Assembly: GCA_964187785.1 (NCBI GenBank)
Contig: OZ076409.1
Location: 7,566,001 to 7,630,000 of the forward strand
Direction of reading: 5' to 3'
Source of the DNA: Amphiscolops sp. MND2022
Lineage: Eukaryota
DNA: 64,000 nucleotides
Position 1 is the first letter of the stretch; every line of letters begins with the position of its first letter. Below the pieces are notes generated by a model. It did no database searches. It was not told the DNA's origin and worked only from the letters and a program-made list of their open reading frames with translations. Below, piece after piece: positions 15,198 to 41,167 of this stretch. A program made the translations under genes and the position numbers.

Positions 15198-15203
15198 GGT
15201 TTC

Positions 15204-15425
15204 TCAAAGTCGGCGCTTGTAGACCTCGTGCCTCATGAACTCTTTGCACCTGTTTAATATAAGTTGGGCAGTCAAGAGAATCAGCTTCGTGGCTTCCGCT
15301 GCAATTGGTACACCTGGCAGGCTGATTACCGCTGCAGTTGTCAATAGAGTGCTCGCCGGAACAATGTTTGCATGACACTTTCGAATGGCAATTGGAACTG
15401 ACGTGTCCGAACTTCTGACATCGGT
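15204..15425 (-). pseudogene. LINE ORF1 C-terminal part with CCHC knuckles
   Basis: RCQKFGHVSSNC, CKHCSGEHSIDNC, CTNCSGSHEADSLDC. Confidence 0.9.
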
Positions 15426-16415
15426 CATTACAGTTCATCTGCAAGCCTTTTCTGAGCGTTTTGCGGAAATGAGGACACGAAATCTCGGAAACCGGGACAC
15501 GTGCACTGAATTCATTCCCCTTTGATGTCGACTGCCTTAGCTTCCTTTGAAGTTGAAATCTTACTTTCCGCATTTTTGTGTCTTGGCAAGTTAATGGGGC
15601 CAATTAATTGCCACTTATGCCAGGCTTCAATAGGGCCAATTATGTAGAAAGCAAATAGTGCAACGTGTCTCAGATTCCAGAGTTTTATTCAGTAGAGTAA
15701 TTCGTACACCTACATTCCGGAACAATTATAAAGTGTTTCCGCATTTTATCTCTTGAAATCAGATGAAAATTGCTAGAAAAGATAATGTTCGGAAACAAAC
15801 TTCTGTTAAATGAAGCTTCATGTTTTGACCCACAATTGGAACCAAAAAATCTCCAAGTTTCACACCAGTTATTTCATTAAAATTTTCTTTTTTTTTTCAA
15901 TTACAATTGGTAGAAAAGTAAGCTTTTTTATTAGGATGGTTTTTTCCATTAAATCCCCCGCAAACCCTTCCCCCCACAGTATGCGCAGAAATTTTTTATC
16001 CCCACCAATATCAGCGATGAAGTCGAGCTATAAAATACTGTTATTTGATTGATTGTTACTATTAATTCAATGATAATTTTTCTCGACCGCCTAACTGAAG
16101 TGGAATAGGAAGGTGGGGGGAATTAACAGAAAAGATGCGTAAGCATTTTTTCTAACTCTTTTCTAATATAATAAGACTGTAGATTTCGGTATCAAGTTCG
16201 GTTGGAAACAAAGGTGTCAATTCTTTATTCAATAGAGGCTATAATGCTCAGGAAGATCTCAAAAGTAAGCGTTGGTTGGAAAAGAACAATAATTAATTAT
16301 TCAAACTACCAAACAGTATCAAACAACGGCTAGATTTTTTGCATTTTTTCAAGGCTATTTGGAATACATTCAATGGTAAAAATATAGAAAAAACAGTCTC
16401 TCATTTCTAAATAAT

Positions 16416-17633: not shown

Positions 17634-20480
17634 TCAATTTTCCTCTTCCGATTCATCTGCAAGATTGTCACTGTTTTCTTTTCGTGGTTCTTGACTACCG
17701 CTGAAGCGACCGCTGGTGTTTCCAGAGCTGCTTCCTGACTGTGATTCACTAAACTCAGAGCGAGCTATCGGATCCTCGTAGTCGAACATTAACTGTTGGA
17801 AGGGATGGATTGTTTTACTTGCTCGGAGGACAACATAACGTTGATTGTTGTCGGCAAACACAATGACATCAGTGGACTTCATATTGGCTTCCAAAACTGA
17901 GTGATGGGCAAGGCGACCCATACATCTACTATCAGGGTGGACAGGACACGTTTCCGCGGAGGCATTGATTATCCTTCGGCCAGGTCCTTTGACTTCCAGA
18001 CAAAACTCCCGTTTAACACCTTCAATGGCGGAAACTTCGTCCATTGATGTCTTGAGGAAAACCTGCCCATGGTAATCAACGACGACTTCATTTTTCTGGA
18101 AAACTCGGGTGGCAACGATTCCCCTTCCAAACTTGCTAAAAAAACCTGCGTGACTCCGGGCCATTTTTGAGATCGACATCTCTCCATAAGCAAAGTTTGA
18201 TCTTCAAACTCCATATTGCTTGCCAATCCTTTGTAATAAATCTTCTGAATTGCTATGTTCGTTTCTACTTTTGGGGTAATAAACATTGGGAGCACAAGTA
18301 TATAAACTTTTCTCAGGTCTTGGTTGCCGTCATTCTGCGTCGTCCATTTCTGTCGCTGGAAATAGTTCTTCAGTCTCATTTCCAACGAAGCAAGGTCAGT
18401 TTTCCCATTCATATGCTTGAAAAGACATGGGCACAAGCTGATTGGCGGGCATATCTCTGTCGATCCTGGTGCCTTCTCACCGCCGACTGCACGATCTGGT
18501 AGTCCAAGGCAATGTCCAGAGTCGCCCAAATTGCTCTAGTCTGGACCTTCAACTTAGGGAGTATTGCTTCAGTGTCGTTTGCGATGGGCAACACAACATG
18601 AAGGTGCCGTTCCAATTCCCTAAGCGGGCTATCACAGTGTTTCAGTAATTGTTTGAAATGATACAAACATTGAATAGTGTCTATATGCATTCTGAATTAA
18701 TGATACCAACAATGTACGTGTCACTTAGATCGACCCCCAATTGGTACCAAAAACTAGCTCTACATTATAAATTGTCCCAGTTTCCACAATTTTTCAGTAT
18801 AATTTGACTTGCTCAAAGAATGCAAAGCGGAAAACAAGACCATATTTTTAAACACATGGCGTGGAAACCAGATACAAATCTTAATACCTTGCCAACATTC
18901 ACTCAAAGGGGTATACACATTATTGCGCGTTACCATGAATGTCCTAGTTTCCACGGTTTTAAGTTTGAATTGACTTACTCAAAGAATGCAATGCGGAAAA
19001 CAAGACCATATCCTTAAACACATGGCGTGGAAACCAAATACAAATCTTAATACATTGCGAACTTTCACTCTAAAGGGTATACACATTATTGCGCGTTACC
19101 ATGAATGTCCTAGTTTCCACGGTTTTAAGTTTGAATTGACCTACTCAAAGAATGCAATGCGGAAAACAAGACCATATCTTTAAACACATGGCGTGGAAAC
19201 CAAATACAAATCTTAATACATTGCGAACTTTCACTCTAAAGTGTATACACATGATTGTGCGTTACCATAAATGTCCTAGTTTGCACGGTTTTTGAGTATA
19301 AAATGGCTCGCTTTTAAAAGTCTTCGAGGAAAAAAAGACCATATCTTTGAACACATGGCGTAAAAACCGAATACAAATCCTAACTAATTGTTTTATTCAA
19401 GGGCGTGTGATGATGATTTGTTTTTACATACCGACTCCACATATTGGTCAACAACGTGGCTAGGTCGGAAGTTGGATTTCCCAGCTGAGTTCACAAAAAA
19501 CAATTCGGTGTAGAGGATCCGATTGTCTGTGTCACTCAGCAGTCTTTCGAAAGGAGTTCCCTCACCGTGGTCCAGAAACTCGTTTCGAACACTCACGAAG
19601 TAGTCCACAAAGCCTTCCAATAACCATGGTGGATAATGTAGCACGTTTTTCTGGCGCACCTCTCAGCTACATCTATCTCAAGCCCGAAAGAGGCATTTTT
19701 GTTGTCGCATTCTTTCATCTGAACTGCTGCCTGCGCCACGGCGTGGACAGTCACATTGCTGACCTCCCGATCCAGAAAACCCAAGAAAATTAGAACGTAG
19801 GCCAGTAGACTTCGAAAGAACTCTATTTGGACCTTTTTCGTAGCCAGAATGCTCTTTCTGCAACGCGATACATTCTCTGTTTTTGTCCATTTAATGAAGG
19901 ACTCCACTGTATCCGTTTTGTAATCAGGCTTCTTCTTCTTGGCGGGAACAGTCTAAAAAAGAGAGAGTTTTCAAAAAGTGTCCTAATTATCTTTGAAACT
20001 GATAACGGAATTAAAAAGTACATTGGCTTCTAGGAAACGTAACCCATGTTTCGAACGCAAAATTTGAACAATATCTATTCAGAAGTTTTACTACACTTAC
20101 CATATCAACTGGTGGGGGCATTGGACGTTTGCTTACTACATTATCGGAGCTTGCATGTCCATTCGACTGTTTTGGAGGAATTATAATCTCAGCTAGTAAT
20201 TCGCTCTGAATGTATAAAAACTCGTTTATGACCTCTTCAGCTTCAGTCGGGAGATGTTCCGTTATTATTCCATCCTCATTGAAGCTGAATTCATGTGGCT
20301 CTTGGAGGCGGAACGGAGTGCTGTTGAGTGGCCCGCCGGATGTTTGGCTAAACATCACGGGCGATAAAGGGCGTGAACAAACCAGAAGGAGTTTGCATTT
20401 GGGTTAACGTCAGAGGCGTGGACATGTCCGCGGAAGCCGGTGTTGGAAGTGGGGGCATCGGCAAATGCAGCGAGGTTTTG
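17634..20480 (-). pseudogene. Multi-exon gene: tyrosine-recombinase-like domain followed by a PR-Set7/SETD8-like SET domain (frameshifted)
   Basis: SET: FGRGIVAT...VVDYHG...MGRLAHHS...ANMK...LRASKTIHPFQQLMFDY (17634-18179). YR-like: LLAYVLIFLGFLDREVSNVTV...LFFVNSAGK...FMLCCPSQTTLKQY. GT-AG intron ~19954-20100; second intron filled with 166-bp repeats. Confidence 0.8.
18780..19390 (+). repeat. 166-bp tandem repeat array (~3.6 units) in an intron of the SET gene
   Basis: TTTCCACGGTTTTAAGTTTGAATTGAC...AATGCGGAAAACAAGACC...; period 166 (repeated ORFs at 18820 and 18986). Confidence 0.95.
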
Positions 20481-20871
20481 TTTTGCTCCATTTAAGAAAG
20501 TTCGATTTTCTATTTTGACGGTCTGATTTTCAGAGACGATTTCAAGATATTGATTGTAGATTTCGAGTATTTGTTGATATGAATTACGATAATATCTGAT
20601 ATTTGGTAACTTGTAGTGCCATATCCGGCTGTGCAACCAAAAACCTCAGTCTTAAATGAGGCATGTAAAAAGCGTTATTACGGAAGGAGGCTAGTGTCTT
20701 CATTTTGCAATTATTCTTATTAGTGCAACTGCTCGGTAATTAGGTGACGATTAGCTGTAATTAATTTGGATTGCAACCAGTCTCGTTATCGTCTTCTTCA
20801 ACGCTCATCCCATCAACATTCACCACATAAGTTGTCTACACAATCTATTAGTTTCGAGCTTTAAGTTAAAA

Positions 20872-22260
20872 ATGCTTCTCCAAACATTCTATGAAAATGA
20901 AGTTGTGCAAATTTTGGATCCTGCGACATCAATTTGGGAATCAGCGAAAATACTTTCCTTTGTGAGCGATTGGTGTGTAAGAATTAAATGGGTCGATTGG
21001 TCTTACAATAAAAACGAAGATATCACTGTTCCCGAAGTATACAGACCTGAAAAAAAACTGGAACATTAGAAAATCACACAATCTTGTACACCAAGAAACT
21101 GTGAGCAACAAAAGACGATCAACACCACTTAGCTACAACGCTCGTCGACTGGTCAGAAACGATCAAATTTACTTTTGGCAACCAGAATATAATTGTGAAG
21201 ATAGCGAAAGATGCCAAGAGGACCGTTGCTGCGGGTCAGTTGTGATGGGTTGGGTAAAAATTAATGATCCTTTCTGTCAACAATGTTTGACAACCGACGT
21301 GGAGGACAATGATGAGTATGTTTCGTATCGCCAACTAAGAAATAAACCTTGTGTAAGAGACACTGAACCAGAAACTGATGAAACTGAACAAGATGAAGAA
21401 TCAGGATCTGACGTACATCGCCCATTCGTCAAAAAGCAAGCCCGTGTGACAAGCGCCGCACAACCGATGCCACAAGTCGACATTCTTTCCTTGCTTCCCA
21501 ATGTTGACGATGACGTTGAATTAACATATGCACCCTGTGAAAATGATATCATAAAGGTAATGTTTTCTTGCTTTTTTGCTTACAAACTTTGCCTTTGAAC
21601 TTTGATAACCCTGGATTGGCACCAATTTTTTCAAAGTATTTTTCCCACCTAATATTTGTTTAATCATTTTGTTTTCAGGTGGGATCTATTGCATCTTACG
21701 CAAATGATGATTTTAAAATCAAGAAGGTTTACTATGATGTTCAGAAGAGAAAAGCATGTGCATTCATGCAGAGCAAAAGTGCCCTGACAATGAAGTGCGC
21801 AGACCAACAATTCGTGTTGTGACAACAACATCTTCTAAAGGCAATGTAATGGATTTTAATTCGCTTCTGGAGCCCATGGACCAAGCCTATGCTTTGTTTT
21901 CTGCAAAAAAACGACTGGGCGGGATTCTCAAGAAAGAAGCATTCCTTAACCGCAACATTAGGTCCCTGTACCCCACTGACAAAAAAACTCTGTGGCTTCG
22001 AAACTGGCAATTTCAAAGAGGCCGTTAAGTATAGTGTTGCAAACCAAGAGGGACATAATTGGTGCAACGGTACATGGGATACTGTACTTGAAAGAAACTA
22101 GGATATGATCCCATGTCACGCAAGCGATGGAAAAGATGTTCTTATAAAGACAATGAGGTTCACTGAACATCGAGAATTTGGCGTGTTCACGATTCGTGTC
22201 CAGTTTTTGACGAGCCAAGGCCACTACAAAAACAGCCAATATAGAGATCTGAGTCGGAAT
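20872..22260 (+). pseudogene. Intron-containing gene with an N-terminal Tudor/Royal-family-like domain, decayed
   Basis: EVVQILDPATSIWESAKILSFVSDWCVRIKWVDWSYNKNEDITV fits a Tudor/Agenet/MBT beta-barrel pattern; acidic linker; GT-AG intron ~21557-21678. Confidence 0.55.
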
Positions 22261-22554
22261 GTACCTGTCTCAGATCCATGAAATACTCTAAAAAACTCCT
22301 AAATTTTAAAAAACTTTTTCAATTCGTGTTTGATCATATTTTGTTTGTTCAACAATTCATCTTTCATCATTATTAGTAATTATTACAATATGAGCTCCAT
22401 GACCTTGTATTCTTGAAAATTCTTGAGCAAAGTCTTAGACTATCGAATTACTTTTTTCTGAAAGCATATGATTAACAAGGCACTTGTCACGTATAGATCA
22501 ACCCCTGATTGGTACCAAAAATGATACAATCTCAGCTATTTCCGGGATTTTACT

Positions 22555-23096: not shown

Positions 23097-26000
23097 TGAA
23101 ACAAACAGTCCTAAGAAGTGAAAACTTCTAATTACGAGTGAGAAGACTTAATGGAGGACTCTTGTGCATCTGATTGTGATTATTGACAAAATGGCTTTGG
23201 GTGATATGGACTCAAATTATCGAATTATTTGAACCGTTCTTCATCAGTTTAATGAAGAGACTCAAAACCGGACTCATTTTACTTGTGGGTTTGTGTATCT
23301 AATTGCATTTCATTTTTTTCTATGGAAAGGTTGTCAGTCTGAAAAATGTTCTACAATCAATACAATTTCACTTTGCAATAAACCTAAAAACCAGCTTTAG
23401 AAATGACTCCACTGTCAATTTGGGAAAGGAATTCTATCGAAGTGGAAAATGGGAAACTCTTCGCTAACTGTCGACTTTTTGACAGTTTTATATCCGGAAA
23501 AAAAATACCGAATAAGTTTCGGAAGTTCGAGACACTTGTTGGGGAAATGTTGACGGGGACAAATTTAAATCCAAAAGAATTCTTTCGGAGAATTGCTGTT
23601 AAAGGCCAGAAAACCCCCCCTGTATTTGTAGCAGCAAAATTGGCAAAACTACTTGTACTGCGTGGATTTAAAGACTTCCCTTGGAGCTCAGCCAGAAGAG
23701 AGTTTGTCAGTTTGTTTTTCAATATTGATGTCATACCAAATCACAATCCTTAAATGAAAGACACCCTTGCGACACCTGCAGATGTGACTCCTGGAGATGC
23801 GGCTTCTGAAGGTCAAGTCAGTGACAATTCTCTCTCAAAAGAAAGAAAGCTAGAAAAATCAGACGCCAAAAAAGTCAAACATGAACAAATTGATCCAATT
23901 AGAACAGATCCGATGTCAGAAGTTGGGTTCAACAGTTTCATGAAAAAAATCAAAAGCTCTGCAAATAAGAATAAAGATCAACGATTCACAAAAAAGAGGA
24001 CCCAAACTTAGTCAAAAAAATTGTAGAAGATCTCTTCGACAAAAGAAGATCGACTGATTAGTTCAGTCACCATTTATCTCTTGTCACGAAAACGGGTAAC
24101 ACGGAAGATGTTATAAAAGTTATTCGAACAAGACTTTAAAATGTTGGACTCGGATACAATTTAGTCCCATGCATTCGATTGGTCAAGAGGTCATCATCCG
24201 AAATTCAGTCCTACTTTACAGCAATGTGTGAGCCAGGAAGAACTTTCTCTGGTTTTCGCTGCAACCTCATAAAATGCGTGGAGACGGTGTCATACTTCTT
24301 ATTTGGAACGAAAGAACTCAATGGCCAACGAGTTGATATTTGGGGAGATGGTTGTGAAATTGGAGGTGTCGAAACAACACGAATTGCATTCCGGATACTT
24401 TCTGACAAAATAAAGTGTCAATCATCAGATGCAGTATTCTGTTTTGCTGCATACAGGGGTAAAGATGGAAGGTTCGCAATGGAACAAAACCATGAACCAA
24501 CTATAGCTGGAGTTCAAGAGTCTGGTTGGCTTTTTATGAAGACCCTGGAACTGTCAAAACGCGGAGTTGTTTTGACATACAGTGGCGATTCGCCGTTTTT
24601 AAAGAGATTGGTGCTCCGTATCACAAATGAATCAGCTAGCCCATCGAAAATGCCACTCTATGTAATGTAACAGAACTTGACTACACAACAACAAAATGTC
24701 ATCATGAAACTGGTTTACGATCTGATGTTATTATACCCTTCAGAAAGGATGTTCCAAAATCTTCCTTGGTCTTCTACGAAAATATACAATCAGTTTGTCC
24801 TGATGCCACGCATATGACAACCCGTTGTGTTGAAAATGACCTCCAAAGAATTGCACAGAAAATTATCAGAGAAAAGTATCCTAATCATGGTGTAGCAAAT
24901 CGCCAGCTTGAAGAAAACTTGACAAGAAGAGATGCGAAGAGACCATACTTTCAGTTCAACATATCTCATAGAAGTGGTTCGTGTATCGGTACTGTAGGTG
25001 CAGTATCCCTCGCAGGTGGTAGTGCTCTAGCGGTCATTGCTGATAAAGAGGAACTTGCAGGTGCGAAAGACGGTAAAATTAGTGATCTTTACCATGGTGT
25101 TTGGGTCCCGAAGATATCATTGTTGGCAGTGAAAAAAACGCAAATGTCCCTTGCGTTAATATCATAAGAAACTGGCTTCCTAAACTTTTCAATAAAGATA
25201 ACCTCAAGCAAAAAGGGTCCAATGACAAATTCATATCTGCTTTTGATGCTTGCGAACTCCTGCGATCGAGTTTAAATCAATGTGTTTTATGTCTGCGAGC
25301 AGAAGAATTCAACAGTGAAACGTTCAAAAAATGGGCTGAAGTTTATTACCAAGTCAATATCTTGATAATCGGGCATGCCGGTTTGACACCCTATAAATTG
25401 AAAATGCTGATGTTTCCTCAACTTGTTGAAAGTGGATACATAAAAAGACCATTTGATCACTTGTGTGAAGGTCTTGAAAAATCGAACCACCAAGCTAATC
25501 GTGGCTTCCAGACGAAAACAATGCGCGGAGGGGGTAAGATTTATCGCAAGGGACCACTATTCCTCGAGTCGTCTTTTTCTTTCTTGAAATTTTTAAGATT
25601 CGCAGTTGAAGTTGAAGACAAAGGGTCGGACGCTGAACCAACTTCTAAGATTATCATGGAACCTGAACAAAACGCAACAACAGAGGTCTACTTTGATGAC
25701 CATAATGTGACTGGAAACAAAGAACTATCAGACAGTTTCGAAAAGTACTTGAAACAGCGTAATGAGTATACTTCATAGTGCAACAAAAGTGATGGGCATT
25801 GACGTTCCGGGACCTGAGTACCTTGATATTTGCCGCAAAGAACCACCGGTAACAACTATCGCCATTGAATGTCAAGAAAATCCTTTGAGTGGATTAAGAT
25901 TTTGTCTGCTTTGTCGCTTGGGTACTTGGAAAAAACATACTCTAACATATGACATGGTGAAACAATTGATTATCAATATGGGAGGAACTGTTCTAGAAAA

Positions 26001-26445
26001 TGAACAAGCTGACGTGTTGATGAGCACCCATTCACAGCTCCCCAATTGTTTTGTTCTTGTCAAGGACGAAAAAGACCTAATCTTAGGTACCGGTTCCACA
26101 GAGGAAATTAACGATATGAAGAAACCAAGGAAAAGAGGGTCATCAGCAACACAGGAGGGTGGAAATGAACCATCACAATATTCCAAAATAGCGAAAGAGT
26201 TCGCAGCTGGGGGCTTCAAATTCTTGAACATCGATTTTGTAGCTGAAGTTGACGAGAAAAAAATGCTGATTGACCCGGAGCCATACTTTCTTCAGCCCGG
26301 ATCCAAACTTGTTGAAAATCGTGTCAACGACAAAAGACCTTTGTTTTTGGATCAATGCAGTGGAAAAACACTGGGTGAAAGTGTATCTGCGATTGTCGCT
26401 CTCAAGAGATACCGTGAGGGCACTTTTAAACAACTTTCGTTTTGA
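23097..26445 (+). pseudogene. DDE transposase (CMC superfamily; Chapaev/Transib/RAG1-like motifs) with a C-terminal BRCT-like domain, frameshifted
   Basis: VDIWGDG (D1 ~24347), LTYSGDSPFL (D2 ~24587), CPDATHMTTRCVE, LTPYKLKML...CEGLEKSNH (E ~25476). BRCT-like: PLSGLRFCLL...VKQLIINMGGTV...FLNIDFVAE...IDPEPYFL. 5' boundary approximate. Confidence 0.8.
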
Positions 26446-26649: not shown

Positions 26650-26850
26650 GATTGCGCGTTACCACAAATGAACTAGTTTCCACGGTTTTGAGTTTGAATT
26701 GACTTACTCAAAGAATGCAATGCGGAAAACAAGATCATATCATTAAACACGTGGCGTGGAAACCAAATACAAATCCTAATACGTTGCGAACTTTCACTCA
26801 AAAGGGTATACACATGATTGTGCGTTACCATAAATGTCCTGGTTTCAATT
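26650..26850 (+). repeat. ~1.2 units of the 166-bp repeat between the convergent transposase and JmjC genes
   Basis: Sequence identity to the 18780-19390 units. Confidence 0.9.
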
Positions 26851-27101: not shown

Positions 27102-30100
27102 TTAATCTATATCTAAAATACCTAGTTCAAGGGGGATTGAGCGTATTCCCGTAATGACAGCAACAAGAGGACAGCGTTTCGGGTGCAAAGATGGATCTAC
27201 CATCTTTGCCGGCAAGACAGTTCTTCCCCTGCCTTTAACATGGGTAATCATCATTGCGGGTCTTGACTCGAGTTCTAGTAAATCCGTTGTCGTCATTACT
27301 TCCTCGTACGCTTTCGTGTAGGGGTCAACAGCGATGGGCACAGTCTCTGGAACAGTAAGAGCCTTACTGAGGTCAGTATTCTTTCGGGATGCTCGCTCAA
27401 ATAATTGCGGCTGCTGCTTGGTGGCTCACGCAGTGTCACTGAAGCTCTTTTTTTTTGCCCAATACGATGTGAAGTCTTTCAGGACTGAAATCGGGTAGCA
27501 CCTGTAAAACGTAAAATTCAACGTAAACTTAAATCGGGTAGCACCTGTGAAACGTAAAAATCAACGTAAACTTTCAACCTGGAGAGCAAACTTTCAATTG
27601 AAAAATACGAAATTTTTATGGTAAAGTTCTTGATTATTATAAACTTATCGACGTAGAAGCACAAAATTCCACTCAGTTGTGTTTTACTTGCGTGTATATC
27701 AGTCAAACTTGAATGTAGAGAATGACCAATATGTGTTTTGAAGTCTTGAAAAAAGCAAGATTTATTCATAAACATAAGTTTTCGAACTAGAAAATGACCT
27801 TCGATTGGAAACAAATAGGAAATGATTGAAAATGGAAAATGGAAAAATGGAAAATTGAAAATTTGTTACCAAACAAAGACTGAAGGCTTAACAATCTTAC
27901 TTCACGGGCGGTGTGTTCATTGTATATTGATTGCACTGTGCTGTACATCGACACCAGGCGTCGACAGAGTCGAGGGAACAGCTTTTTGGCAATACGGTAC
28001 ATCAGAAGTACCAGCATCTCTGGAACATCAGGAAATTTGTCATCGGATCTTCTCGGGAACTCGACGATGATTGAGTGTCTTATCATGGGCAGGTGCCCAA
28101 ACGCCAGGAAGTTTGTTCCCAACGAAATGGCATTGCCTTTCTTAAGAACGAAGTGGAGGAAATTTGCGAGCATGACTAGAACATCTCCAGCTGTGACATG
28201 CAACCGCAAACATCCCTCTTCCAGCTGGTCGATGTTCCCGAAGAATGTTGGCCTGAAAAAACATCGAAGTTGCTTTTCTAATTTTTTGACATTAATAGAA
28301 GAAAACTAAAAGAAAAGTTTAATTATTTGAAAAGAGACGTTAAATGCTTGCTTGTTGTTTTCCATGACCAAAAAATAATAGTCAAAAAGTATAGTTGTTT
28401 GTTTTTGAAAATAGAACAGTATTCTTGAAGAAAATAAAGTTGGTGTGCTAGTTAAGTTTTGTTACTTACGTAGTGTCGTTCTCAGCATTCGACCATCTTT
28501 CAAAAATGCTGAGATTTTTTTTCGACGGTTTCACTAAAAAGAAAATCTTCTCTCCAGTTAGAACTGTGTAAAACACAGACGTCGAAGAATAACCCTGATG
28601 CCACGTCGTGTGCGCAGAATCTTGAGTGACCAGGACATAATAGGAAGTAGAACAAGAATAAGGCTCGGTTCTCGACTTCCGATTTCCCTGTCGGCCAAGT
28701 GGTTGATGGAGTTGTCAGCCACCATCTCGGGTACTGTTTATATGGCCTTGGGGAGTGTCCTGACATCGATGACGTTTAAAGAGTAATATTGACTGCCTGG
28801 ATGACAGTTGGCCAGCTCCACGAAAAACTCTTCATACGTCATTTCTCGTGTCTGTAAAAACATCTATTAAATGATGATGCTAGGCAATGTTCTAATTCAT
28901 GTTATCAACAGTGTACTTGTCACAGGTAGATCGGCCCTGGATTGGTACCAAAACGAACTCGACATAACTGTCCCAGTTTCCACGGATTTTCAGTATAATT
29001 TGACTTGCTCAAAGAACACAATGCGGAAAACAAGACCATATCTTTAAACACATGGCGTGGAAACCAAATACAAATCTTAATACATTACGAACTTTCACTC
29101 TAAAGGGTATACACATTATTGCGCGTTACCATGAATGTCCTAGTTTCCACGGTTTTAAGTTTGAATTGACTTACTCAAAGAATGCAATGCGGGAAACAAG
29201 ACCAATTCTTTAACACATGGCGTGGAAATAAATACAAATCCTAATACATTGCAGAACCTCACTTGAAGGGGTATACCCATGGTTTGTGTTTTGGAAAAAC
29301 TAAATTTGTTTTTTCACTAAATGCTAAACATGGTTCAAACGAGTAGGAAGTGTTTTTTACCTCTCCGATTCTGGCTGACTTGACTTCAATTGGAGCATCA
29401 GGTTCAGCAAAGTTGACCGGTCGCAGAAGCCGTTTGATCTCCGCGACGAAGCCTTTTTTCGCGTAGAATTTTTGGACTTTCAGTCCTCTGCAGTGCTTGG
29501 CTCCGTTTCTCCAAATCAAGGGGACACCATGTCGAAGAAGATGACCAAGGTGTTCGGTTTGATTGTCATGGGGACCCTGCCACTCAGCGTAGGAAAATCG
29601 ACAATCCAGAGGCACGTTTTCGCAAAACGCGAAGTGCTCTTGGGTGCCAAATGGGGCCGCTGGAGTCCCAGAATTGAATGTCAAATCAAGTGGCATCGGT
29701 GGTTGGGCAATTTGACATTTGACTGATCTCGCGATGTGGTTCCTCAGGCTGTACCCGTACCCGAATGAGGTCCCACACGAAACGCACAAGTGACGGCTTC
29801 TTCTTTTTCCTTTCGCAGCTTCTGTAATTTCAAAGACATTTTTTCAAATGAAATTCGGAAATCTTTTCTTTCATGAATTTCATTTTTAGTATGACCCATG
29901 ATTGGAACCAAAAATCTTCCAAAGATTTCATGAATGCTTTCATGGTATGACCCATGATTGGAACTGAAATCCTTTCCAAAAAATTGTGTTTTTTAGACCT
30001 TCCCTTTCACATCAGAAAAACATTTTCCTTCTTTTTTCTATTGCATACGATAATCGGTTCAAGACCGTAAAATATTTCAAAACATGAACAAACAAAATCC

Positions 30101-31345
30101 TGGAAACAATCTGAACACTAACGGTATTGGTTTATTCTAACTTTTTCTCCAGCAGCAATCTTTTCTTGTTGTTTCGTGCAGTATTTGGTTCTTCTTTGAT
30201 AGCGCTCTTTACTTTTTTTTTGTGAAAATCTGACCACATTTCTCGCACGTCAAATTCTGGGCAACTTGTTCCTGCTTGCTGACACTTTTGCATCCCGGAA
30301 GATGACGGGTTAAGTGCCATTTCTTCCAGCATCGTAGTCGCAATTCGGACACGGGAAACCTAAAGCCTTTTGAATTATACGAGATGAAGAACTCAAATAA
30401 AAAACCATACCTATACATACAAAATACATACCAAAATCAGATTGTTTTCCACGAGTTACAAATTTGATAGGTTTCATTTAGATTGCTCAAAACTTTGAAA
30501 AATGGTATACATGATATACTGATCCACGTGATGTTTGATTTGTCAAACTTTTTATCAATCCAGTTTCAATTACAAAAAAGGGAGATTGTCGCTTGTCAAT
30601 TGTCAAAACGAGAACAAGAACGAGTGAATGGAAGTCTTACGTTTTTTAGGTGGCGGAGTTGTATCTCGAAATTCGTCACAGAGTTGTCTTTTTCGGTTTT
30701 CTGGCAAACCAGGGCAAGTGCGGGCATGAACAGAAAGGGCTTCTCGAGTGGGGGCATAATGGTCGCAAGCACCGATTGTGCAGAGATGACGTGAATAATA
30801 AAACAAAGATGAAAATATATACAATAAATGAAGACTCATACACAGGGGTGTTCGAGCCATATTTGCGTGAAAATTATTGGCAATTAAGGGATTCAAATAG
30901 ACGATTGGAAGTACCGAATTAATGGAAAAAGTTGAAAGACGCCCTCAAATTTTACCATAATTACCATGGCATATTTCAATTCTGCAAACGAAGATAAATG
31001 AATCTGTTCTAAAGTATAAAAAACTCCTTTTTTGAACACCCCTGTTCATACAGCCTCAAAATTTCAATACAAATAAAACCAGAACAAAGTAAAGAAACGT
31101 TCATCAAAACTTCAAACATGTTTCACATTCGCAGTTGAATTTACCCGTTTCAGCAGTTTGATAGTTTTTGACCTATTTCACTGATAGTCAAGAAAAAGTA
31201 ACTCAGAAATTAACAACTTACCAAGGGACAGTTCTGATGATGAGTCAGATGAGTCCATGCGGGATCTAAAGATCTGAGAAGTGCTGGGTCCGCTGGGTCC
31301 GCCAGCTTGCTCATAAGTACTTGCAGGTGTTTTCTTCGATTTCGG
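27102..31345 (-). pseudogene. Multi-exon zinc-finger + JmjC (KDM2/KDM7-like) gene, the only complete copy
   Basis: Exons ~31345-31222, ~30800-30641 (C2HC finger, PPPKKRK NLS), ~30359-30135 (fingers), ~29840-29361 (CVSC...H finger, GVPLIWRN), 28851-28470 (YVLVTQDSAHTTWHQGYSSTSVFYTVLTGEKIFFLVKP), ~28252-27901 (VTAGDVLVMLANFLHFV...GTNFL), ~27502-27102. Confidence 0.85.
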
Positions 31346-34300
31346 CTGTAACAATTTGAAAATGTGAATTGCAAAAGAGTAAATATCAAGAAATTTAAAT
31401 TATTTCAAATAACAAAGTCAAAATTGTTTACGAGAAAGTTTGGATCTTTCCGGTTCATCCCCCCATCGATTTAAGTCCCCCAGTAGTGATTAATCGAAAG
31501 TTTTATGAATTAACTTTTAAAAAAGTATTCCGGTTCATCCCCCCATCGATTTAATTCCCCAGTATTTATTAAATAAAAGTTCTATAAATTAACTTTTTAA
31601 AAAGTATAAAAGTATATCATTAAACATATATTTTTTGGAAGAGAATCTGCGTAAAACAATTTGAAAGTTATCAGGACACTGTTCGAAAAAACTGCCTTGC
31701 ACTTTGAACCAGAATCTGCTTCTAAATTGTAAAATCAATTACAGTACGGGGGCTTTTGTAACGACCCGAAGGGGCAGTTGATTTTAAACTGATAGTTTTT
31801 TGATAAACTCCAAAAACAGTTTCTGGGAATTTGGGATTAAAATTGAAACAAGTAGAAGTCAAGAGAATTGTTGGATTGTGAAAGATTTTGGGCATAAAAG
31901 TGTCTAATTTTTTTCTGTGAACTCAAAATCTTTCTAGTTTGTTTTTTGAAGTTTTCATTCTCATATTATTTGATCTGATCTTATTGGGGATTCCATTTGG
32001 CCCAAGCTTGGAACCAATCTTTAAGAAATCCATAACCAAAATCAATTTAAAAACAATTTTTCAACCAATAATTTATTTCCGAAAACGAATATATCAACTT
32101 TCCATTATGATTGGCTCCGGGTTATATCCGGTGATTAGCTGAGTTTATTTTCGGCTGCTGGCTGTTGGGTGTCTGCTAAACTTTGAGTTGTTAATGAGAG
32201 ATTTTAAGATTTGGCTTGTTAATGAGATTGAGAGAGTCAGTTAACAGTACAGTCTGAACGGTAGGAAAACAAGTTCGACAATGAAAACAGCCGGTCGGTC
32301 AGTTGATGTGCGTGATACGCGCGAATGATACGAGCCGCTGATTAGCCAATAGGAATCACCCAAATGGAACAGTCATGTTTGATACGAGTTTCTGTTACGC
32401 GCCGCTGATTATCAAGGAAAATACTCACGATTGTAACAGTTATGATTTTGATACGAGCCGCTGATACCCGACGCTGGTAAGCCACGGTTGAAACTGTGAA
32501 CTTTCAAGCGATGACCGATAAGGCAATTATAATCATCAGGGGTGCGCATTATTGTATTTATATTTATTGATACGACTTCACCAAAAAATAATAGTCAAAA
32601 AGTATAGTTGTTTGTTTTTGAAAATAGAACAGTATTCTTGAAGAAAATAAAGTTGGTGTGCTAGTTAAGTTTTGTTACTTACGTAGTGTCGTTCTCAGCA
32701 TTTGACCATCTTTCAAAAATGCTGAGATTTTTTTTCGACGGTTTCACTAAAAAGAAAATCTTCTCTCCAGTTAGAACTGTGTAAAACACAGACGTCGAAG
32801 AATAATCCTGATGCCACGTCGTGTGCGCAGAATCTTGAGTGACCAGGACATAATAGGAAGTAGAACAAGAATAAGGCTCGGTTCTCGACTTACGATTTCC
32901 CTGTCGGCCAAGTGGTTGATGGAGTTGTCAGCCACCATCTCGGGTACTGTGTATATGGCCTTGGGGAGTGTCCTGACATCGATGACGTTTAAAGGGTAAT
33001 ATTGACTGCCTGGATGACAGTTGGCCAGCTCCACGAAAAACTCTTCATACGTCATTTCTCGTGTCTGTAAAAACATCTATTAAATGATGATGCTAGGCAA
33101 TGTTCTAATTCATGTTATCAACAGTGTACTTGTCACAGGTAGATCGGCCCTGGATTGGTACCAAAACGAACTCGACATAACTGTCCCAGTTTCCACGGAT
33201 TTTCAGTATAATTTGACTTGCTCAAAGAACACAATGCGGAAAACAAGACCATATCTTTAAACACATGGCGTGGAAACCAAATACAAATCTTAATACATTA
33301 CGAACTTTCACTCTAAAGGGTATACACATTATTGCGCGTTACCATGAATGTCCTAGTTTCCACGGTTTTAAGTTTGAATTGACTTACTCAAAGAATGCAA
33401 TGCGGGAAACAAGACCATATCTTTAAACACATGGCCTGGAAACCAAATACAAATCTTAATACATTACGAACTTTCACTCTAAAGGGTATACACATTATTG
33501 CGCGTTACCATGAATGTCCTAGTTTCCACGGTTTTAAGTTTGAATTGACTTACTCAAAGAATGCAATGCGGGAAACAAGACCAATTCTTTAAACACATGG
33601 CGTGGAAATAAATACAAATCCTAATACATTGCAGAACCTCACTTGAAGGGGTATACCCATGGTTTGTGTTTTGGAAAAACTAAATTTGTTTTTTCACTAA
33701 ATGCTAAACATGGTTCAAACGAGTAGGAAGTGTTTTTTACCTCTCCGATTCTGGCTGACTTGACTTCAATTGGAGCATCAGGTTCAGCAAAGTTGACCGG
33801 TCGCAGAAGCCGTTTGATCTCCGCGACGAAGCCTTTTTTCGCGTAGAATTTTTGGACTTTCAGTCCTCTGCAGTGCTTGGCTCCGTTTCTCCAAATCAAG
33901 GGGACACCATGTCGAAGAAGATGACCAAGGTGTTCGGTTTGATTGTCATGGGGACCCTGCCACTCAGCGTAGGAAAATCGACAATCCAGAGGCACGTTTC
34001 CGCAAAACGCGAAGTGCTCTTGGGTGCCAAATGGGGCCGCTGGAGTCCCAGAATTGAATGTCAAATCAAGTGGCATCGGTGGTTGGGCAATTTGACATTT
34101 GACTCATCTCGCGATGTGGTTCCTCAGGCTGTACCCGTACCCGAATGAGGTCCCACACGAAACGCACAAGTGACGGCTTCTTCTTTTTCCTCTCGCAGCT
34201 TCTGTAATTTCAAAGACATTTTTTTCAAATGAATTTCGGAAATCTTTTCTTTCATGAATTTCTTTTTTAGTATGACCCATGATTGGAACCAAAAATCTTC

Positions 34301-37300
34301 CAAAGATTTCATGAATGCTTTCATGGTATGACCCATGATTGGAACTGAAATCCTTTCCAAAAAATTGTGTTTTTTAGACCTTCCCTTTCACATCAGAAAA
34401 ACATTTTCCTTCTTTTTTCTATTGCATACGATAATCGGTTCAAGACCGTGAAATATTTCAAAACATGAACAAACAAAGTCCTGGAAACAATCTGAACACT
34501 AACGGTATTGGTACATTCTAACTTTTTCTCCAGCAGCAATCTTTTCTTGTTGTTTCGTGCAGTATTTGGTTCTTCTTTGATAGCGCTCTTTACTTTTTTT
34601 TGTGAAAATCTGACCACATTTCTCGCACGTCAAATTCTGGGCAACTTGTTCCTGCTTGCTGACACTTTTGCATCCCGGAAGATGACGGGTTAAGTGCCAT
34701 TTCTTCCAGCAACGTAGTCGCAATTCGGACACGGGAAACCTAAAGCCTTTTGAATTATACGAGATGAAGAACTCAAATAAAAAACCATACCTATACATAC
34801 AAAATACATACCAAAATCAGATTGTTTTCCACGAGTTACAAATTTGATAGGTTTCATTTAGATTGCTCAAAACTTTGAAAAATGGTATACATGATATACT
34901 GATCCACGTGATGTTTGATTTGTCAAACTTTTTATCAATCCAGTTTCAATTACAAAAAAAGGGAGATTGTCGCTTGTTTAATTGTCAAAACGAGAACAAG
35001 AACGAGTGAATGGAAGTCTTACGTTTTTTAGGTGGCGGAGTTGTATCTCGAAATTCGTCACAGAGTTGTCTTTTTCGGTTTTCTGGCAAACCAGGGCAAG
35101 TGCGGGCATGAACAGAAAGGGCTTCTCGAGTGGGGGCATAATGGTCGCAAGCACCGATTGTGCAGAGATGACGTGAATGACAAAACAAAGATGAAAATAT
35201 ATACAATAAATGAAGACTCATACACAGGGGTGTTCGAGCCATATTTGCGTGAAAATTATTGGCAATTAAGGGATTCAAATAGAGGATTGGAAGTACCGAA
35301 TTAATGGAAAAAGTTGAAAGACGCCCTCAAATTTTACCATAATTACCATGGCATATTTCAATTCTGCAAACGAAGATAAATGAATCTGTTCTAAAGTATA
35401 AAAAACTCCTTTTTTGAACACCCCTGTTCATACAGCCTCAAAATTTCAATACAAATAAAACCAGAACAAAGTAAAGAAACGTTCATCAAAACTTCAAACA
35501 TGTTTCACATTCGCAGTTGAATTTACCCGTTTCAGCAGTTTGATAGTTTTTGACCTATTTCACTGATAGTCAAGAAAAAGTAACTCAGAAATTAACAACT
35601 TACCAAGGGACAGTTCTGATGATGAGTCAGATGAGTCCATGCGGGATCTAAAGATCTGAGAAGTGCTGGGTCCGCTGGGTCCGGCAGCTTGCTCATAAGT
35701 ACTTGCAGGTGTTTTCTTCGATTTCGGCTGTAACAATTTGAAAATGTGAATTGCAAAAGAGTAAATATCAAGAAATTTAAATTAGTTCAAATAACAAAGT
35801 CAAAATTGTTTACGAGAAAGTTTGGATCTTTCCGGTTCATCCCCCCATCGATTTAAGTCCCCTAGTAGTGATTAATCAAAAGTTTTATGAATTAACTTTT
35901 AAAAAAGTATTCCGGTTCATCCCCCCATCGATTTAATTCCCCAGTATTTATTAAATAAAAGTTCTATAAATTAACTTTTTAAAAAGTATAAAAGTATATC
36001 ATTAAACATATATTTTTTGGAAGAGAATCTGCGTAAAACAATTTGAAAGTTATCAGGACACTGTTCGAAAAAACTGCCTTGCACTTTGAACCAGAATCTG
36101 CTTCTAAATTGTAAAATCAATTACAGTACGGGGGCTTTTGTAACGACCCGAAGGGGCAGTTGATTTTAAACTGATAGTTTTTTGATAAACTCCAAAAACA
36201 GTTTCTGGGAATTTGGGATTAAAATTGAAACAAGTAGAAGTCAAGAGAATTGTTGGATTGTGAAAGATTTTGGGCATAAAAGTGTCTAATTTTTTTCTGT
36301 GAACTCAAAATCTTTCTAGTTTGTTTTTTGAAGTTTTCATTCTCATATTATTTGATCTGATCTTATTGGGGATTCCATTTGGCCCAAGCTTGGAACCAAT
36401 CTTTAAGAAATCCATAACCAAAATCAATTTAAAAACAATTTTTCAACCAATAATTTATTTCCGAAAACGAATATATCAACTTTCCATTATGATTGGCTCC
36501 GGGTTATATCCGTTGATTAGCTGAGTTTATTATCGGCTGCTGGCTGTTGGGTGTCTGCTAAACTTTGAGTTGTTAATGAGAGATTTTAAGATTTGGCTTG
36601 TTAATGAGATTGAGAGAGTCAGTTAACAGTACAGTCTGAACGGTAGGAAAACAAGTTCGACAATGAAAACAGCCGGTCGGTCAGTTGATGTGCGTGATAC
36701 GCGCGAATGATACGAGCCGCTGATTAGCCAATAGGAATCACCCAAATGGAACAGTCATGTTTGATACGAGTTTCTGTTACGCGCCGCTGATTATCAAGGA
36801 AAATACTCACGATTGTAACAGTTATGATTTTGATACGAGCCGCTGATACCCGACGCTGGTAAGCCACGGTTGAAACTGTGAACTTTCAAGCGATGACCGA
36901 TAAGGCAATTATAATCATCAGGGGTGCGCATTATTGTATTTATGTTTATTGATACGACTTCACCAAAAAATAATAGTCAAAAAGTATAGTTGTTTGTTTT
37001 TGAAAATAGAACAGTATTCTTGAAGAAAATAAAGTTGGTGTGCTAGTTAAGTTTTGTTACTTACGTAGTGTCGTTCTCAGCATTCGACCATCTTTCAAAA
37101 ATGCTGAGATTTTTTTTCGACGGTTTCACTAAAAAGAAAATCTTCTCTCCAGTTAGAACTGTGTAAAACACAGACGTCGAAGAATAATCCTGATGCCACG
37201 TCGTGTGCGCAGAATCGTGAGTGACCAGGACATAATAGGAAGTAGAACAAGAATAAGGCTCGGTTCTCGACTTACGATTTCCCTGTCGGCCAAGTGGTTG

Positions 37301-40300
37301 ATGGAGTTGTCAGCCACCATCTCGGGTACTGTGTATATGGCCTTGGGGAGTGTCCTGACATCGATGACGTTTAAAGGGTAATATTGACTGCCTGGATGAC
37401 AGTTGGCCAGCTCCACGAAAACTCTTCATACGTCATTTCTCGTGTCTGTAAAAACATCTATTAAATGATGATGCTAGGCAATGTTCTAATTCATGTTATC
37501 AACAGTGTACTTGTCACAGGTAGATCGGCCCTGGATTGGTACCAAAACGAACTCGACATAACTGTCCCAGTTTCCACGGATTTTCAGTATAATTTGACTT
37601 GCTCAAAGAACACAATGCGGAAAACAAGACCATATCTTTAAACACATGTCCTGGAAACCAAATACAAATCTTAATACATTACGAACTTTCACTCTAAAGG
37701 GTATACACATTATTGCGCGTTACCATGAATGTCCTAGTTTCCACGGTTTTAAGTTTGAATTGACTTACTCAAAGAATGCAATGCGGGAAACAAGACCAAT
37801 TCTTTAAACACATGGCGTGGAAATAAATACAAATCCTAATACATTGCAGAACCTCACTTGAAGGGGTATACCCATGGTTTGTGTTTTGGAAAAACTAAAT
37901 TTGTTTTTTCACTAAATGCTAAACATGGTTCAAACGAGTAGGAAGTGTTTTTTACCTCTCCGATTCTGGCTGACTTGACTTCAATTGGAGCATCAGGTTC
38001 AGCAAAGTTGACCGGTCGCAGAAGCCGTTTGATCTCCGCGACGAAGCCTTTTTTCGCGTAGAATTTTTGGACTTTCAGTCCTCTGCAGTGCTTGGCTCCG
38101 TTTCTCCAAATCAAGGGGACACCATGTCGAAGAAGATGACCAAGGTGTTCGGTTTGATTGTCATGGGGACCCTGCCACTCAGCGTAGGAAAATCGACAAT
38201 CCAGAGGCACGTTTCCGCAAAACGCGAAGTGCTCTTGGGTGCCAAATGGGGCCGCTGGAGTCCCAGAATTGAATGTCAAATCAAGTGGCATCGGTGGTTG
38301 GGCAATTTGACATTTGACTCATCTCGCGATGTGGTTCCTCAGGCTGTACCCGTACCCGAATGAGGTCCCACACGAAACGCACAAGTGACGGCTTCTTCTT
38401 TTTCCTCTCGCAGCTTCTGTAATTTCAAAGACATTTTTTTCAAATGAATTTCGGAAATCTTTTCTTTCATGAATTTCTTTTTTAGTATGACCCATGATTG
38501 GAACCAAAAATCTTCCAAAGATTTCATGAATGCTTTCATGGTATGACCCATGATTGGAACTGAAATCCTTTCCAAAAAATTGTGTTTTTTAGACCTTCCC
38601 TTTCACATCAGAAAAACATTTTCCTTCTTTTTTCTATTGCATACGATAATCGGTTCAAGACCGTAAAATATTTCAAAACATGAACAAACAAAGTCCTGGA
38701 AACAATCTGAACACTAACGGTATTGGTACATTCTAACTTTTTCTCCAGCAGCAATCTTTTCTTGTTGTTTCGTGCAGTATTTGGTTCTTCTTTGATAGCG
38801 CTCTTTACTTTTTTTTGTGAAAATCTGACCACATTTCTCGCACGTCAAATTCTGGGCAACTTGTTCCTGCTTGCTGACACTTTTGCATCCCGGAAGATGA
38901 CGGGTTAAATGCCATTTCTTCCAGCAACGTAGTCGCAATTCGGACACGGGAAACATAAAGCCTTTTGAATTATACGAGATGAAGAACTCAAATAAAAAAC
39001 CATACCTATACATACAAAATACATACCAAAATCAGATTGTTTTCCACGAGTTACAAATTTGATAGGTTTCATTTAGATTGCTCAAAACTTTGAAAAATGG
39101 TATACATGATATACTGATCCACGTGATGTTTGATTTGTCAAACTTTTTATCAATCCAGTTTCAATTACAAAAAAAGGGAGATTGTCGCTTGTCAATTGTC
39201 AAAACGAGAACAAGAACGAGTGAATGGAAGTCTTACGTTTTTTAGGTGGCGGAGTTGTATCTCGAAATTCGTCACAGAGTTGTCTTTTTCGGTTTTCTGG
39301 CAAACCGGGGCAAGTGCGGGCATGAACAGAAAGGGCTTCTCGAGTGGGGGCATAATGGTCGCAAGCACCGATTGTGCAGAGATGACGTGAATAACAAAAC
39401 AAAGATGAAAATATATACAATAAATGAAGACTCATACACCGGGGTGTTCGAGCCATATTTGCGTGAAAATTATTGGCAATTAAGGGATTCAAATAGAGGA
39501 TTGGAAGTACCGAATTAATGGAAAAAGTTGAAAGACGCCCTCAAATTTTACCATAATTACCATGGCATATTTCAATTCTGCAAACGAAGATAAATGAATC
39601 TGTTCTAAAGTATAAAAAACTCCTTTTTTGAACACCCCTGTTCATACAGCCTCAAAATTTCAATACAAATAAAACCAGAACAAAGTAAAGAAACGTTCAT
39701 CAAAACTTCAAACATGTTTCACATTCGCAGTTGAATTTACCCGTTTCAGCAGTTTGATAGTTTTTGACCTATTTCACTGATAGTCAAGAAAAAGTAACTC
39801 AGAAATTAACAACTTACCTAGGAACAGTTCTGATGATGAGTCAGATGAGTCCATGCGGGATCTAAAGATCTGAGAAGTGCTGGGTCCGCTGGGTCCGGCA
39901 GCTTGCTCATAAGTACTTGCAGGTGTTTTCTTCGATTTCGGCTGTAACAATTTGAAAATGTGAATTGCAAAAGAGTAAATATCAAGAAATTTAAATTAGT
40001 TCAAATAACAAAGTCAAAATTGTTTACGAGAAAGTTTGGATCTTTCCGGTTCATCCCCCCATCGATTTAAGTCCCCTAGTAGTGATTAATCAAAAGTTTT
40101 ATGAATTAACTTTTAAAAAAGTATTCCGGTTCATCCCCCCATCGATTTAATTCCCCAGTATTTATTAAATAAAAGTTCTATAAATTAACTTTTTAAAAAG
40201 TATAAAAGTATATCATTAAACATATATTTTTTGGAAGAGAATCTGCGTAAAACAATTTGAAAGTTATCAGGACACTGTTCGAAAAAACTGCCTTGCACTT

Positions 40301-41167
40301 TGAACCAGAATCTGCTTCTAAATTGTAAAATCAATTACAGTACGGGGGCTTTTATAACGACCCGAAGGGGCAGTTGATTTTAAACTGATAGGTTTTTGAT
40401 AAACTCCAAAAACAGTTTCTGGGAATTTGGGATTAAAATTGAAACAAGTAGAAGTCAAGAGAATTGTTGGATTGTGAAAGATTTTGGGCATAAAAGTGTC
40501 TAATTTTTTTCTGTGAACTCAAAATCTTTCTAGTTTGTTTTTTGAAGTTTTCATTCTCATATTATTTGATCTGATCTTATTGGGGATTCCATTTGGCCCA
40601 AGCTTGGAACCAATCTTTAAGAAATCCATAACCAAAATCAATTTAAAAACAATTTTTCAACCAATAATTTATTTCCGAAAACGAATATATCAACTTTCCA
40701 TTATGATTGGCTCCGGGTTATATCCGTTGATTAGCTGAGGGTATTATCGGCTGCTGGCTGTTGGGTGTCTGCTAAACTTTGAGTTGTTAATGAGAGATTT
40801 TAAGATTTGGCTTGTTAATGAGATTGAGAGAGTCAGTTAACAGTACAGTCTGAACGGTAGGAAAACAAGTTCGACAATGAGAACAGCCGGTCGGTCAGTT
40901 GATGTTCGTGATACGCGCGAATGATACGAGCCGCTGATTAGCCAATAGGAATCACCCAAATGGAACAGTCATGTTTGATACGAGTTTCTGTTACGCGCCG
41001 CTGATTATCAAGGAAAATAGTCACCATTGTAACAGTTATGATTTTGATACGAGCCGCTGATACCCGACGCTGGTAAGCCACGGTTGAAACTGTGAACTTT
41101 CAAGCGATGACCGATAAGGCAATAATAATCATCAGGGGTGCGCATTATTGTATTTATATTTATTGAT
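28367..41167. repeat. Tandem triplication of a ~4.2-4.4 kb unit holding the promoter and 5' exons of the ZF-JmjC gene
   Basis: Units start at 28367, 32580 and 36962; ORF offsets 4213 and 4382; near-identical; unit 2 has one extra 166-bp repeat. Confidence 0.97.

Follow-up and report, generated by a model that had tools for sequence, protein, structure and literature searches.

Why would a mobile element carry a gene resembling that of a histone demethylase? The question is raised by a window of 64,000 nucleotides from Amphiscolops sp. MND2022 (GenBank assembly GCA_964187785.1, contig OZ076409.1, positions 7,566,001 to 7,630,000), in which a first-pass annotation had placed a KDM2/7-type JmjC gene with N-terminal zinc fingers at positions 27102–31345 and described it as transposon cargo. 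The gene is indeed found there, on the minus strand, and the interval coincides exactly with its predicted exons 8 to 2. Transposons of about 18–20 kb with a RAG1-fold transposase form a clade in which this finger-JmjC gene has long been kept under selection as an accessory gene. The initial description lacks two points: the gene is dead in the window, and a SET writer is likewise encoded by the element. With a probability of roughly 0.55, we favor self-directed anti-silencing as the explanation of this association: a finger-targeted eraser would keep the element expressed or accessible, as judged from sequence comparison.

The Carrier Element

The carrier of the finger-JmjC gene is a DNA transposon, which occupies positions 15426–44770 of the window. 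By comparison of 25 fetched copies, the element is ~17.5–20 kb long, and the window copy has been enlarged to 29.3 kb through internal duplications. Its terminal inverted repeats of 21 bp begin CATTACAG (CATTACA), and 15 of the 17 copies of its family (F1) with both ends present have a target-site duplication (TSD) of 2 bp. The window copy interrupts the first open reading frame (ORF1) of a long interspersed nuclear element (LINE), whose CCHC knuckle is regained once the element and exactly two bases are removed. The ends are as follows:

15424..15425, no strand: left TSD copy (GT); excision restores the LINE ORF1 knuckle
15426..15446, plus strand: left terminal inverted repeat, 21 bp, starting CATTACAG, one mismatch against the family form
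44750..44770, minus strand: right terminal inverted repeat
44771..44772, no strand: right TSD copy (GT)

The LINE itself, cut in two by the element (12919–15425 and 44771–45341, minus strand), comprises the ORF1 knuckle, an endonuclease, and a reverse transcriptase.

The genome holds 326 exact occurrences of the terminal repeat and none of the reversed control. The JmjC stretch has matches at 39 other dispersed loci with 92–96% identity (40 of 111 candidates scored), which bears out the description as transposon cargo, and the neighboring plus-strand frames recur at ~40 dispersed loci with 92–96% identity (40 of 299 candidates scored). Four copies are 99.91–99.94% identical across 17.8 kb, so the F1 family has moved recently. 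A host gene with a transposon merely nearby was ruled out by the common ends, the TSDs, and the co-occurrence in 25 of 25 copies. A viral origin was also ruled out, as the viral contigs contain no relative and the long frames of the element no capsid or polymerase. For the recombinase-like part of accessory gene 1, Atlas lists one row of viral proteins, which is no more than a lead.

Structure of the Finger-JmjC Gene

The gene was modeled on a young copy, with eight predicted exons, GT-AG introns, and a predicted product of 709 residues comprising four C2HC fingers, the JmjC domain, and a C-terminal tail. Its parts in the window are:

27102..27501, minus strand: predicted exon 8, C-terminal region; +1 frameshift in the window
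27901..28252, minus strand: predicted exon 7, with the distal Fe-binding His (FLHFV), GTNFL, and a helical tail
28470..28851, minus strand: predicted exon 6, JmjC core with N for 2-oxoglutarate (2OG), T, H-x-D (H-x-G in the window), Y, and K; stop and 1-nt deletion
29361..29821, minus strand: predicted exon 5, C2HC finger 4, then the first part of the JmjC fold
30123..30359, minus strand: predicted exon 4, encoding C2HC fingers 2 and 3; window copy with a frameshift and a stop
30641..30790, minus strand: predicted exon 3, coding for finger 1 and a basic stretch; in the window the acceptor AG reads AC
31222..31345, minus strand: predicted exon 2, Ser/Pro-rich basic N-terminus
32103..32105, minus strand: predicted exon 1, ATG only; donor GT changed to GA in the window; least certain part of the model
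32580..41171, minus strand: two more tandem copies of 28367–32575, exons 1–6 only, ~99% identical
41931..44132, no strand: duplicate of 39734–41936, with exon 2, exon 1, and subterminal DNA

The window copy of the gene is dead: HQD has become HQG, splice sites are broken, and the frame holds stops and frameshifts. The window holds three tandem units of 28367–32575, of which only the first has exons 7 and 8. All three have the frameshifts of exons 4 and 6 in common, so that the gene was dead before the tandem duplication, and unit 1 adds a stop and the Asp-to-Gly change. On this point the first-pass annotation needs correction: within 27102–31345, the motif reads TTWHQGY and not TTWHQDY, and the HQD string that had been quoted belongs to the tandem duplicate at 32679–32927, which lacks exons 7–8 and hence the distal His.

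The family assignment of the domains is supported by several searches. The exon with the HxD motif matches PHF8 at E 5e-12 (query: duplicate exon 32682–32927), along with KDM7A, PHF2, and KDM2A, and the matches of JmjC cores to KDM7/KDM2 enzymes range from E 5e-12 to 4e-18, the closest being PHF8, KDM7A, and KDM2A. Single-exon cores of two further families, F2 and F3, exceed the Pfam JmjC cut-off of 24 with 39.5 and 29.1 bits, respectively, while the finger exon of an intact copy reaches Pfam zf-C2H2 with 30.9 bits (cut-off 25.2). The several C2H2/C2HC-like fingers of the initial description are four in number and of the C2HC type, with Cys as the last ligand. They do take the place of PHD and CXXC: Pfam scans of the exons gave no N-terminal PHD and no CXXC, and neither these two nor an F-box or LRR occurs in the 709-residue model. 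The proposed nuclear localization signal fares less well, since the SV40-like PKKRK is partly intron read-through (the predicted spliced text runs PPPKKR followed by FPC); other basic clusters exist.

From the phase compatibility, the conserved GT-AG sites, the in-frame indels of exon 2, and the selection on both halves, we infer that the finger exons are spliced to the JmjC exons. The predicted junction joins them in frame in the F1 model and, by way of phase-1 symmetric exons, in F2. In the F2 gene, the fingers and JmjC are separated by acidic exons, duplicated and phase-1 symmetric, of which there are at least ten and whose number varies by copy (L070:6250-9450).

Retention and Selection across Families

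All eight exons map in the 25 of 25 copies that were fetched through their transposase match, 8 of which have an uninterrupted frame across the whole set of predicted exons. Across the 26 F1 copies, the PHF8-equivalent residues N189, Y234, T244, H247, Y257, K264, and N333 are present throughout, including the 2OG-binding Thr and Lys reported at first. D249 is found in 25/26 and H319 in 22/26, so the family consensus keeps HxD...H. The roles of these residues in PHF8 are given in the available part of PMC9516565. Substitutions in at least three copies, taken as reflecting the active lineages, have a ratio of nonsynonymous to synonymous change (dN/dS) of 0.28, versus 0.85 for private ones (p 1.6e-5). 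The same comparison yields 0.19 versus 1.05 in the finger region and 0.33 versus 0.79 in JmjC. Elsewhere in the element, dN/dS is 0.22 for the transposase core and 0.06 for the SET domain, its most conserved part.

A genome search with Pfam JmjC led to the two further multicopy families, F2 and F3. They are 19-kb elements with CATTACA ends, a 2-bp TSD, and the same four genes as F1 in another order; having been found via JmjC, they are no test of linkage. Such a test is provided by seven further loci chosen by transposase alone (from 102 matches), which add five more families. A JmjC gene lies within 15 kb in 7/7 of them and a SET domain is present in six, the seventh stretch being just 20 kb long; both ends were found for three. 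TSDs with 5'-CA..TG-3' termini were seen in 2/2 F2, 2/2 F3, 2/2 F6, and 0/1 F4 elements. In total, at least eight families with transposases 40–85% identical carry the JmjC gene. Together with a ninth JmjC gene, for which no transposase was seen, they provide nine representatives, in all of which HxD...H and the 2OG Lys and Tyr are intact; the 2OG Thr is present in 8/9, the 2OG Asn was seen in F1–F3, and fingers precede JmjC wherever the stretch reached. A further finger-JmjC gene, F11, is located at L135:3789-5685, its transposase lying outside the fetched stretch.

The transposase and JmjC trees have the clades (F2,F3), (F1,F9), and (F6,(F4,F5)) in common and agree except for F7 (support 76/84), with a Mantel rho of 0.83 (p ~0.004; a sister locus served to complete one row). 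These data bear directly on neutral hitch-hiking, in which the gene would be a Pack-type captured host fragment without function. That the gene is broken in the window copy and in 17 of the 25 others would fit it, but individual copies decay equally in the transposase, and the ligands intact across eight families (down to 40% transposase identity), the co-divergence, and the purifying selection make this explanation scarcely credible.

Origin of the JmjC Gene

A genome search with the KDM2/7 helical-domain profile (JHD) returned only one host gene, which is KDM7-like; a first host candidate for the KDM2/7 gene had turned out to be KDM4-like. The elements and this host gene have an intron in common before the JmjC core, in phase 0 (within one codon in F1; also in F2 and F3). 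A second one, in phase 2, follows the HxD exon at the identical codon in F1, and in F4–F7 and F9 the frame breaks at its site. In an LG+G4 tree, the F1–F3 proteins form one long-branched group that is sister to the host KDM7-like clade (Shimodaira–Hasegawa-like approximate likelihood ratio test 82; 95 for KDM7 plus elements). An affinity with KDM7 rather than KDM2 is tentatively favored on the present sequences. The two introns positioned as in the host gene point to a single old capture as the probable origin: a KDM7-like host gene would have been taken up as DNA with its introns, the histone-reading PHD being replaced by C2HC fingers. A recent capture from the host KDM7-like gene is ruled out by the co-divergence and by the identity of the JmjC cores of element and host enzyme, which is only 26–35%.

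An unrelated JmjC frame lies antisense between the pol and env-like frames of a Gypsy-type element, in two ~95% identical copies (L096:2430-3194, L099:4008-4904). It is over the Pfam cut-off, has H-x-D and the distal His, and represents a second, independent JmjC capture in this genome.

Fingers, Repeats, and Proposed Targeting

The predicted spliced product is likely an Fe(II)/2OG lysine demethylase, as argued from the retention of every cofactor ligand across such distances. KDM7 enzymes act on H3K9me1/2, H3K27me2, and H4K20me1, and their PHD ties the enzyme to H3K4me3. If KDM7-like, the element enzyme would have H3K9me1/2, H3K27me2, or H4K20me1 as its histone substrate. Its fingers would steer it to the element's own DNA, so that the element would escape silent chromatin. 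The window copy would rely on intact copies in trans.

Several finger helices have Arg at -1 and +6, a feature of DNA-reading fingers according to the zinc-finger code; examples are RKWHLTRH in F1 and RTNFERH and RSDSLQRH in F7. As possible landing sites of these predicted DNA-binding fingers, each of the families F1–F3 offers its own internal repeats. In F1, the unit is 166 bp long, lies in or beside each gene, and occurs only in F1 loci (among 1.13 Mb fetched):

18690..19383, plus strand: 166-bp repeat array in an intron of accessory gene 1
22474-23015, 26643-26846, 28890-29284: the 166-bp unit elsewhere in the window element

F1, F2, and F3 each have their own non-coding repeats, none of which is common between them; the F3 unit is 38 bp long. 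These private repeats parallel the targets of VANC in Arabidopsis, as far as the available text of PMC5735166 describes them.

A histone demethylase could instead act broadly on host chromatin or host silencing genes and not on the element sequence. A common, possibly host, target would fit the three-base signatures of the fingers (Arg -1, Asn/His +3, Arg +6), which are alike across families despite the differing internal repeats. The helix of the third finger, however, varies between families, the repeats are family-specific, and broad action would be costly to the host, an argument found in the portion of PMC5735166 available. We therefore regard such host targets as very unlikely.

The fingers may also bind protein, and the enzyme may have non-histone targets: methylation could, for example, switch the transposase or a silencing factor of the host, or JmjC could act as a hydroxylase. 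Outside the cofactor site the sequence is strongly diverged from host KDM2/7, and this divergence, the lack of a recognizable JHD domain, and the C2HC nature of the fingers all speak for such targets. They are nonetheless distinctly unlikely, given the base-reading Arg residues in the finger helices and the PHF8 methyl-lysine pocket residues Y234, I191, F250, and N333, which are retained or conservatively changed.

The SET and Tudor-Like Genes

The element carries two further accessory genes:

17673..20491, minus strand: accessory gene 1, tyrosine-recombinase-like region (lead only) and SETD8/KMT5A-like SET; frameshifted in the window
20791..22275, plus strand: accessory gene 2, opening with two SH3-like barrels that look like tandem Tudor/Agenet domains and are followed by a domain of unknown type; frameshifted in the window

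The C-terminal SET of accessory gene 1 is found by Pfam at E 5e-9, and its best solved match is SETD8 (E 2e-5). At the site where that structure carries a Tyr-to-Phe substitution, the element SET has Phe. One young copy has a stop ahead of its SET domain that no other copy shares. For the upstream part of the F2 gene, Atlas gives DUF3504/integrase at 0.89–0.91, again only as a lead. The F2 orthologue of accessory gene 2 was modeled with a predicted local distance difference test (pLDDT) score of 73, and the best Foldseek match is the UHRF1 tandem Tudor (E 4.6e-3); with a best Z of just 5.7, this is a fold-level match. Related transposases were found at 15 metagenome loci, four of which have the Tudor-like gene alongside. 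If self-directed anti-silencing applies, the demethylase would cooperate with the SET and Tudor-like products, and, given the SET writer, mark-stripping alone may be half of the system. Independently of these elements, the genome contains 1399 SET candidates, many in identical-score sets and several a few kb from transposases of this clade, which may mark further SET-carrying mobile families.

The presence of a writer also suggests that SET and JmjC could form an H4K20 writer–eraser pair that steers excision-gap repair or the timing of transposition, with BRCT and the Tudor-like barrels reading damage and methyl marks. PHF8 acts on H4K20me1, and H4K20 methylation governs repair choice. The proximity of SET to SETD8 together with its rank as the most conserved part of the element, the proximity of the F1 JmjC to PHF8, the BRCT of the transposase, and the tandem Tudor-like barrels are all consistent with a role in repair. 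The SETD8 match is weak (E 2e-5), however, the Tudor resemblance, with Z no higher than 5.7, is confined to the fold, and we hold this alternative to be unlikely.

Weighing Self-Directed Anti-Silencing

Several observations weigh against a self-directed silencing antagonist. A KDM2-like enzyme would remove H3K36me2, which is no classic silencing mark. The idea, put forward at the outset, that the gene product strips repressive marks on a KDM7-type basis depends on the tentatively favored KDM7 affinity, but a KDM2 grouping still stands at p 0.119 in the approximately unbiased (AU) test. The element JmjC also falls outside all reference KDM2/7 in a quick mixture-model tree that left out 4 short references (the LG+G4/AU analysis took 28/56 rows), and both trees took in only three element proteins, on long branches. 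To this can be added the low core identity with the host enzyme and the lack of any hit to the JHD helical domain (PF17811) in the elements, whether in the tail exons of F1–F3 or in the genome search; behind JmjC, a diverged helical tail with an FP motif was recognized by eye. The fingers end in Cys, are spaced 15–30 residues apart, and have no TGEKP linkers; fingers with such features can bind proteins. As for the other cargo, the closeness of SET to SETD8 points to H4K20-type writing and not just erasing, and selection on the Tudor-like gene is not significant (dN/dS 0.41–0.42, p 0.14). JmjC or SET was found at 0/15 of the metagenome loci, but their contigs of 1.1–7.4 kb mostly end too soon. 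Protein searches with the element JmjC exons for longer relatives, which were weak, gave one broken near-relative and otherwise none.

If self-directed anti-silencing is correct, the finger-JmjC protein would be a histone eraser that evolved in nature and is targeted by sequence. With its recent activity and its natural intact copies, this animal element allows counter-silencing to be tested directly on histones.

The Transposase Lineage

The mobility of the element is attributed to a transposase whose sequence alone gives few clues:

23391..26445, plus strand: transposase, RAG1/Transib fold with C-terminal BRCT; fragmented in the window

A frame of 1017 residues is open in 7/25 other copies. 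Sequence searches name only the BRCT tail, in Pfam, with nothing further there and nothing among solved structures. A model of the core (pLDDT 88.8) was matched by Foldseek to RAG1, ProtoRAG, and HzTransib (E 1.4e-5). The structural match to RAG1 has a Z of 19.4 over 380 residues with a root-mean-square deviation of 3.6 Å, followed by HzTransib with 17.1, the P element being the next family at 12.1. By motif, the catalytic triad is assigned to the GD Asp and the ExxE Glu, which are invariant in 23 sequences, and to a candidate first Asp (WGD) that is present in the F1–F3 transposases.

With RAG1, ProtoRAG, and Transib, the element shares the fold, the 5'-CA..TG-3' ends, and a TSD within 2–5 bp. 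It differs in its 10–14% identity, 2-bp TSD, CATTAC ends, and BRCT tail, and no RAG2-like gene was seen in it. Transib elements have a 5-bp TSD and CAC ends, in contrast to the 2-bp TSD and CAT ends found here. The plant En/Spm end reads CACTACAAGAAAA, from which the F3 element end CATTACAAGACACAA (e.g., L078/L079) is separated by one change, at base 3. The zinc ligands C(2)C and H(3-4)H were not found between the second Asp and Glu, and no conserved Cys is among the invariant or near-invariant columns. The CxxC is missing in 7/8 families and wrongly placed in the eighth; the position of the His pair reads PYKLK, and the His of DxxH is retained. In the available part of Kojima 2025 (PMC12730594), the C(2)C and H(3-4)H motifs are given for all CMCT lineages, along with 5'-CA..TG-3' termini and a TSD of 2–5 bp. 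From the fold match and the lacking motifs, the modeled transposase therefore appears to work like a CMCT member yet fails one defining feature. The fold is kept although the zinc ligands of RAG1/Transib/CMC are gone (for example, in L018:4302-7352).

The search of cluster representatives yielded 422 relatives of the transposase with E up to 0.001, and ten of these that were looked up had no informative name. With the element, an unusual zinc-less branch is added to the transposases from which RAG1 arose. Tentatively, a wider proposal is possible, though doubtful as a whole: an undescribed RAG1-fold lineage that lost its zinc site may have its own chromatin editing kit, predating the 40% divergence and consisting of an active finger-retargeted demethylase, a SETD8-like writer, and a Tudor-like reader, with which it would find its own copies and reset their histone methylation.

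Relation to Known Systems

Chromatin-modifying enzymes are a known kind of transposon cargo; the combination of JmjC, SET, and Tudor-like genes did not turn up in the literature searched. Compared with the KDM7 (PHF8, KDM7A, PHF2) and KDM2 enzymes, the JmjC core, Fe ligands, and 2OG residues are alike. Unlike them, the element gene is multicopy and transposon-borne, has N-terminal C2HC fingers, lacks PHD, CXXC, F-box, LRR, and a Pfam JHD, and is known from sequence alone.

Giant Plavaka elements (EnSpm/CMCT) of the red alga Bostrychia are 17.4–19.1 kb long and have three accessory genes (bioRxiv 10.1101/2025.02.11.637652, available part). The resemblance extends from size and number of accessory genes to a SET domain, a 2OG oxygenase with a putative DNA-binding domain, and internal repeat arrays, which were proposed there as self-targets. 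According to the same part of that text, however, the Bostrychia oxygenase weakly matches a fold other than JmjC and comes with a ParB-like domain, and an adenine methylase is the fusion partner of SET. The animal element has a KDM2/7 JmjC with zinc fingers, a SET behind a recombinase-like region, a Tudor-like gene, and a BRCT.

Other transposon-encoded chromatin-mark enzymes are TET/JBP on fungal DNA transposons and SET on oomycete HarbingerS/MuDR elements, several of the hosts belonging to the CMCT clade (PMC12730594, as far as available). TET acts on DNA bases, writer and eraser types reside on separate elements, and no histone demethylase is described in that portion of the article. The VANDAL/VANC system of Arabidopsis (available text of PMC5735166) is similar in that an accessory protein is predicted here to be sequence-targeted and family-specific tandem repeats occur in introns and intergenic DNA. 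VANC is not a JmjC protein; it causes loss of DNA methylation, resides on a Mutator element, and was demonstrated by experiment. Counter-silencing by transposons has been shown in few cases, and in the parts of the literature covered VANC is the sole one cited as binding and modifying its own element. Full-text literature searches brought up no paper on either a JmjC histone demethylase on a DNA transposon or this transposase lineage; Repbase Reports and most subscription papers, which lay outside the search, could hold the family. The accessible part of PMC9406493 mentions JmjC solely as host erasers.

Neighboring Elements

The surroundings of the transposon are rich in other mobile sequences:

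1–5902, minus strand: Gypsy-type gag-pol frames of 1371 and 634 residues, running off the window start
10223–11723: frame of a LINE reverse transcriptase, which runs up to a (TAG)38 tract
49068–52655 and 55926–58383: decayed long terminal repeat (LTR)-type frames, by eye, with a plus-strand Gypsy-like pol/integrase and minus-strand pieces of BEL/Pao type
59929–60677: short element resembling a miniature inverted-repeat transposable element or a foldback element, with inverted 11-bp internal repeats

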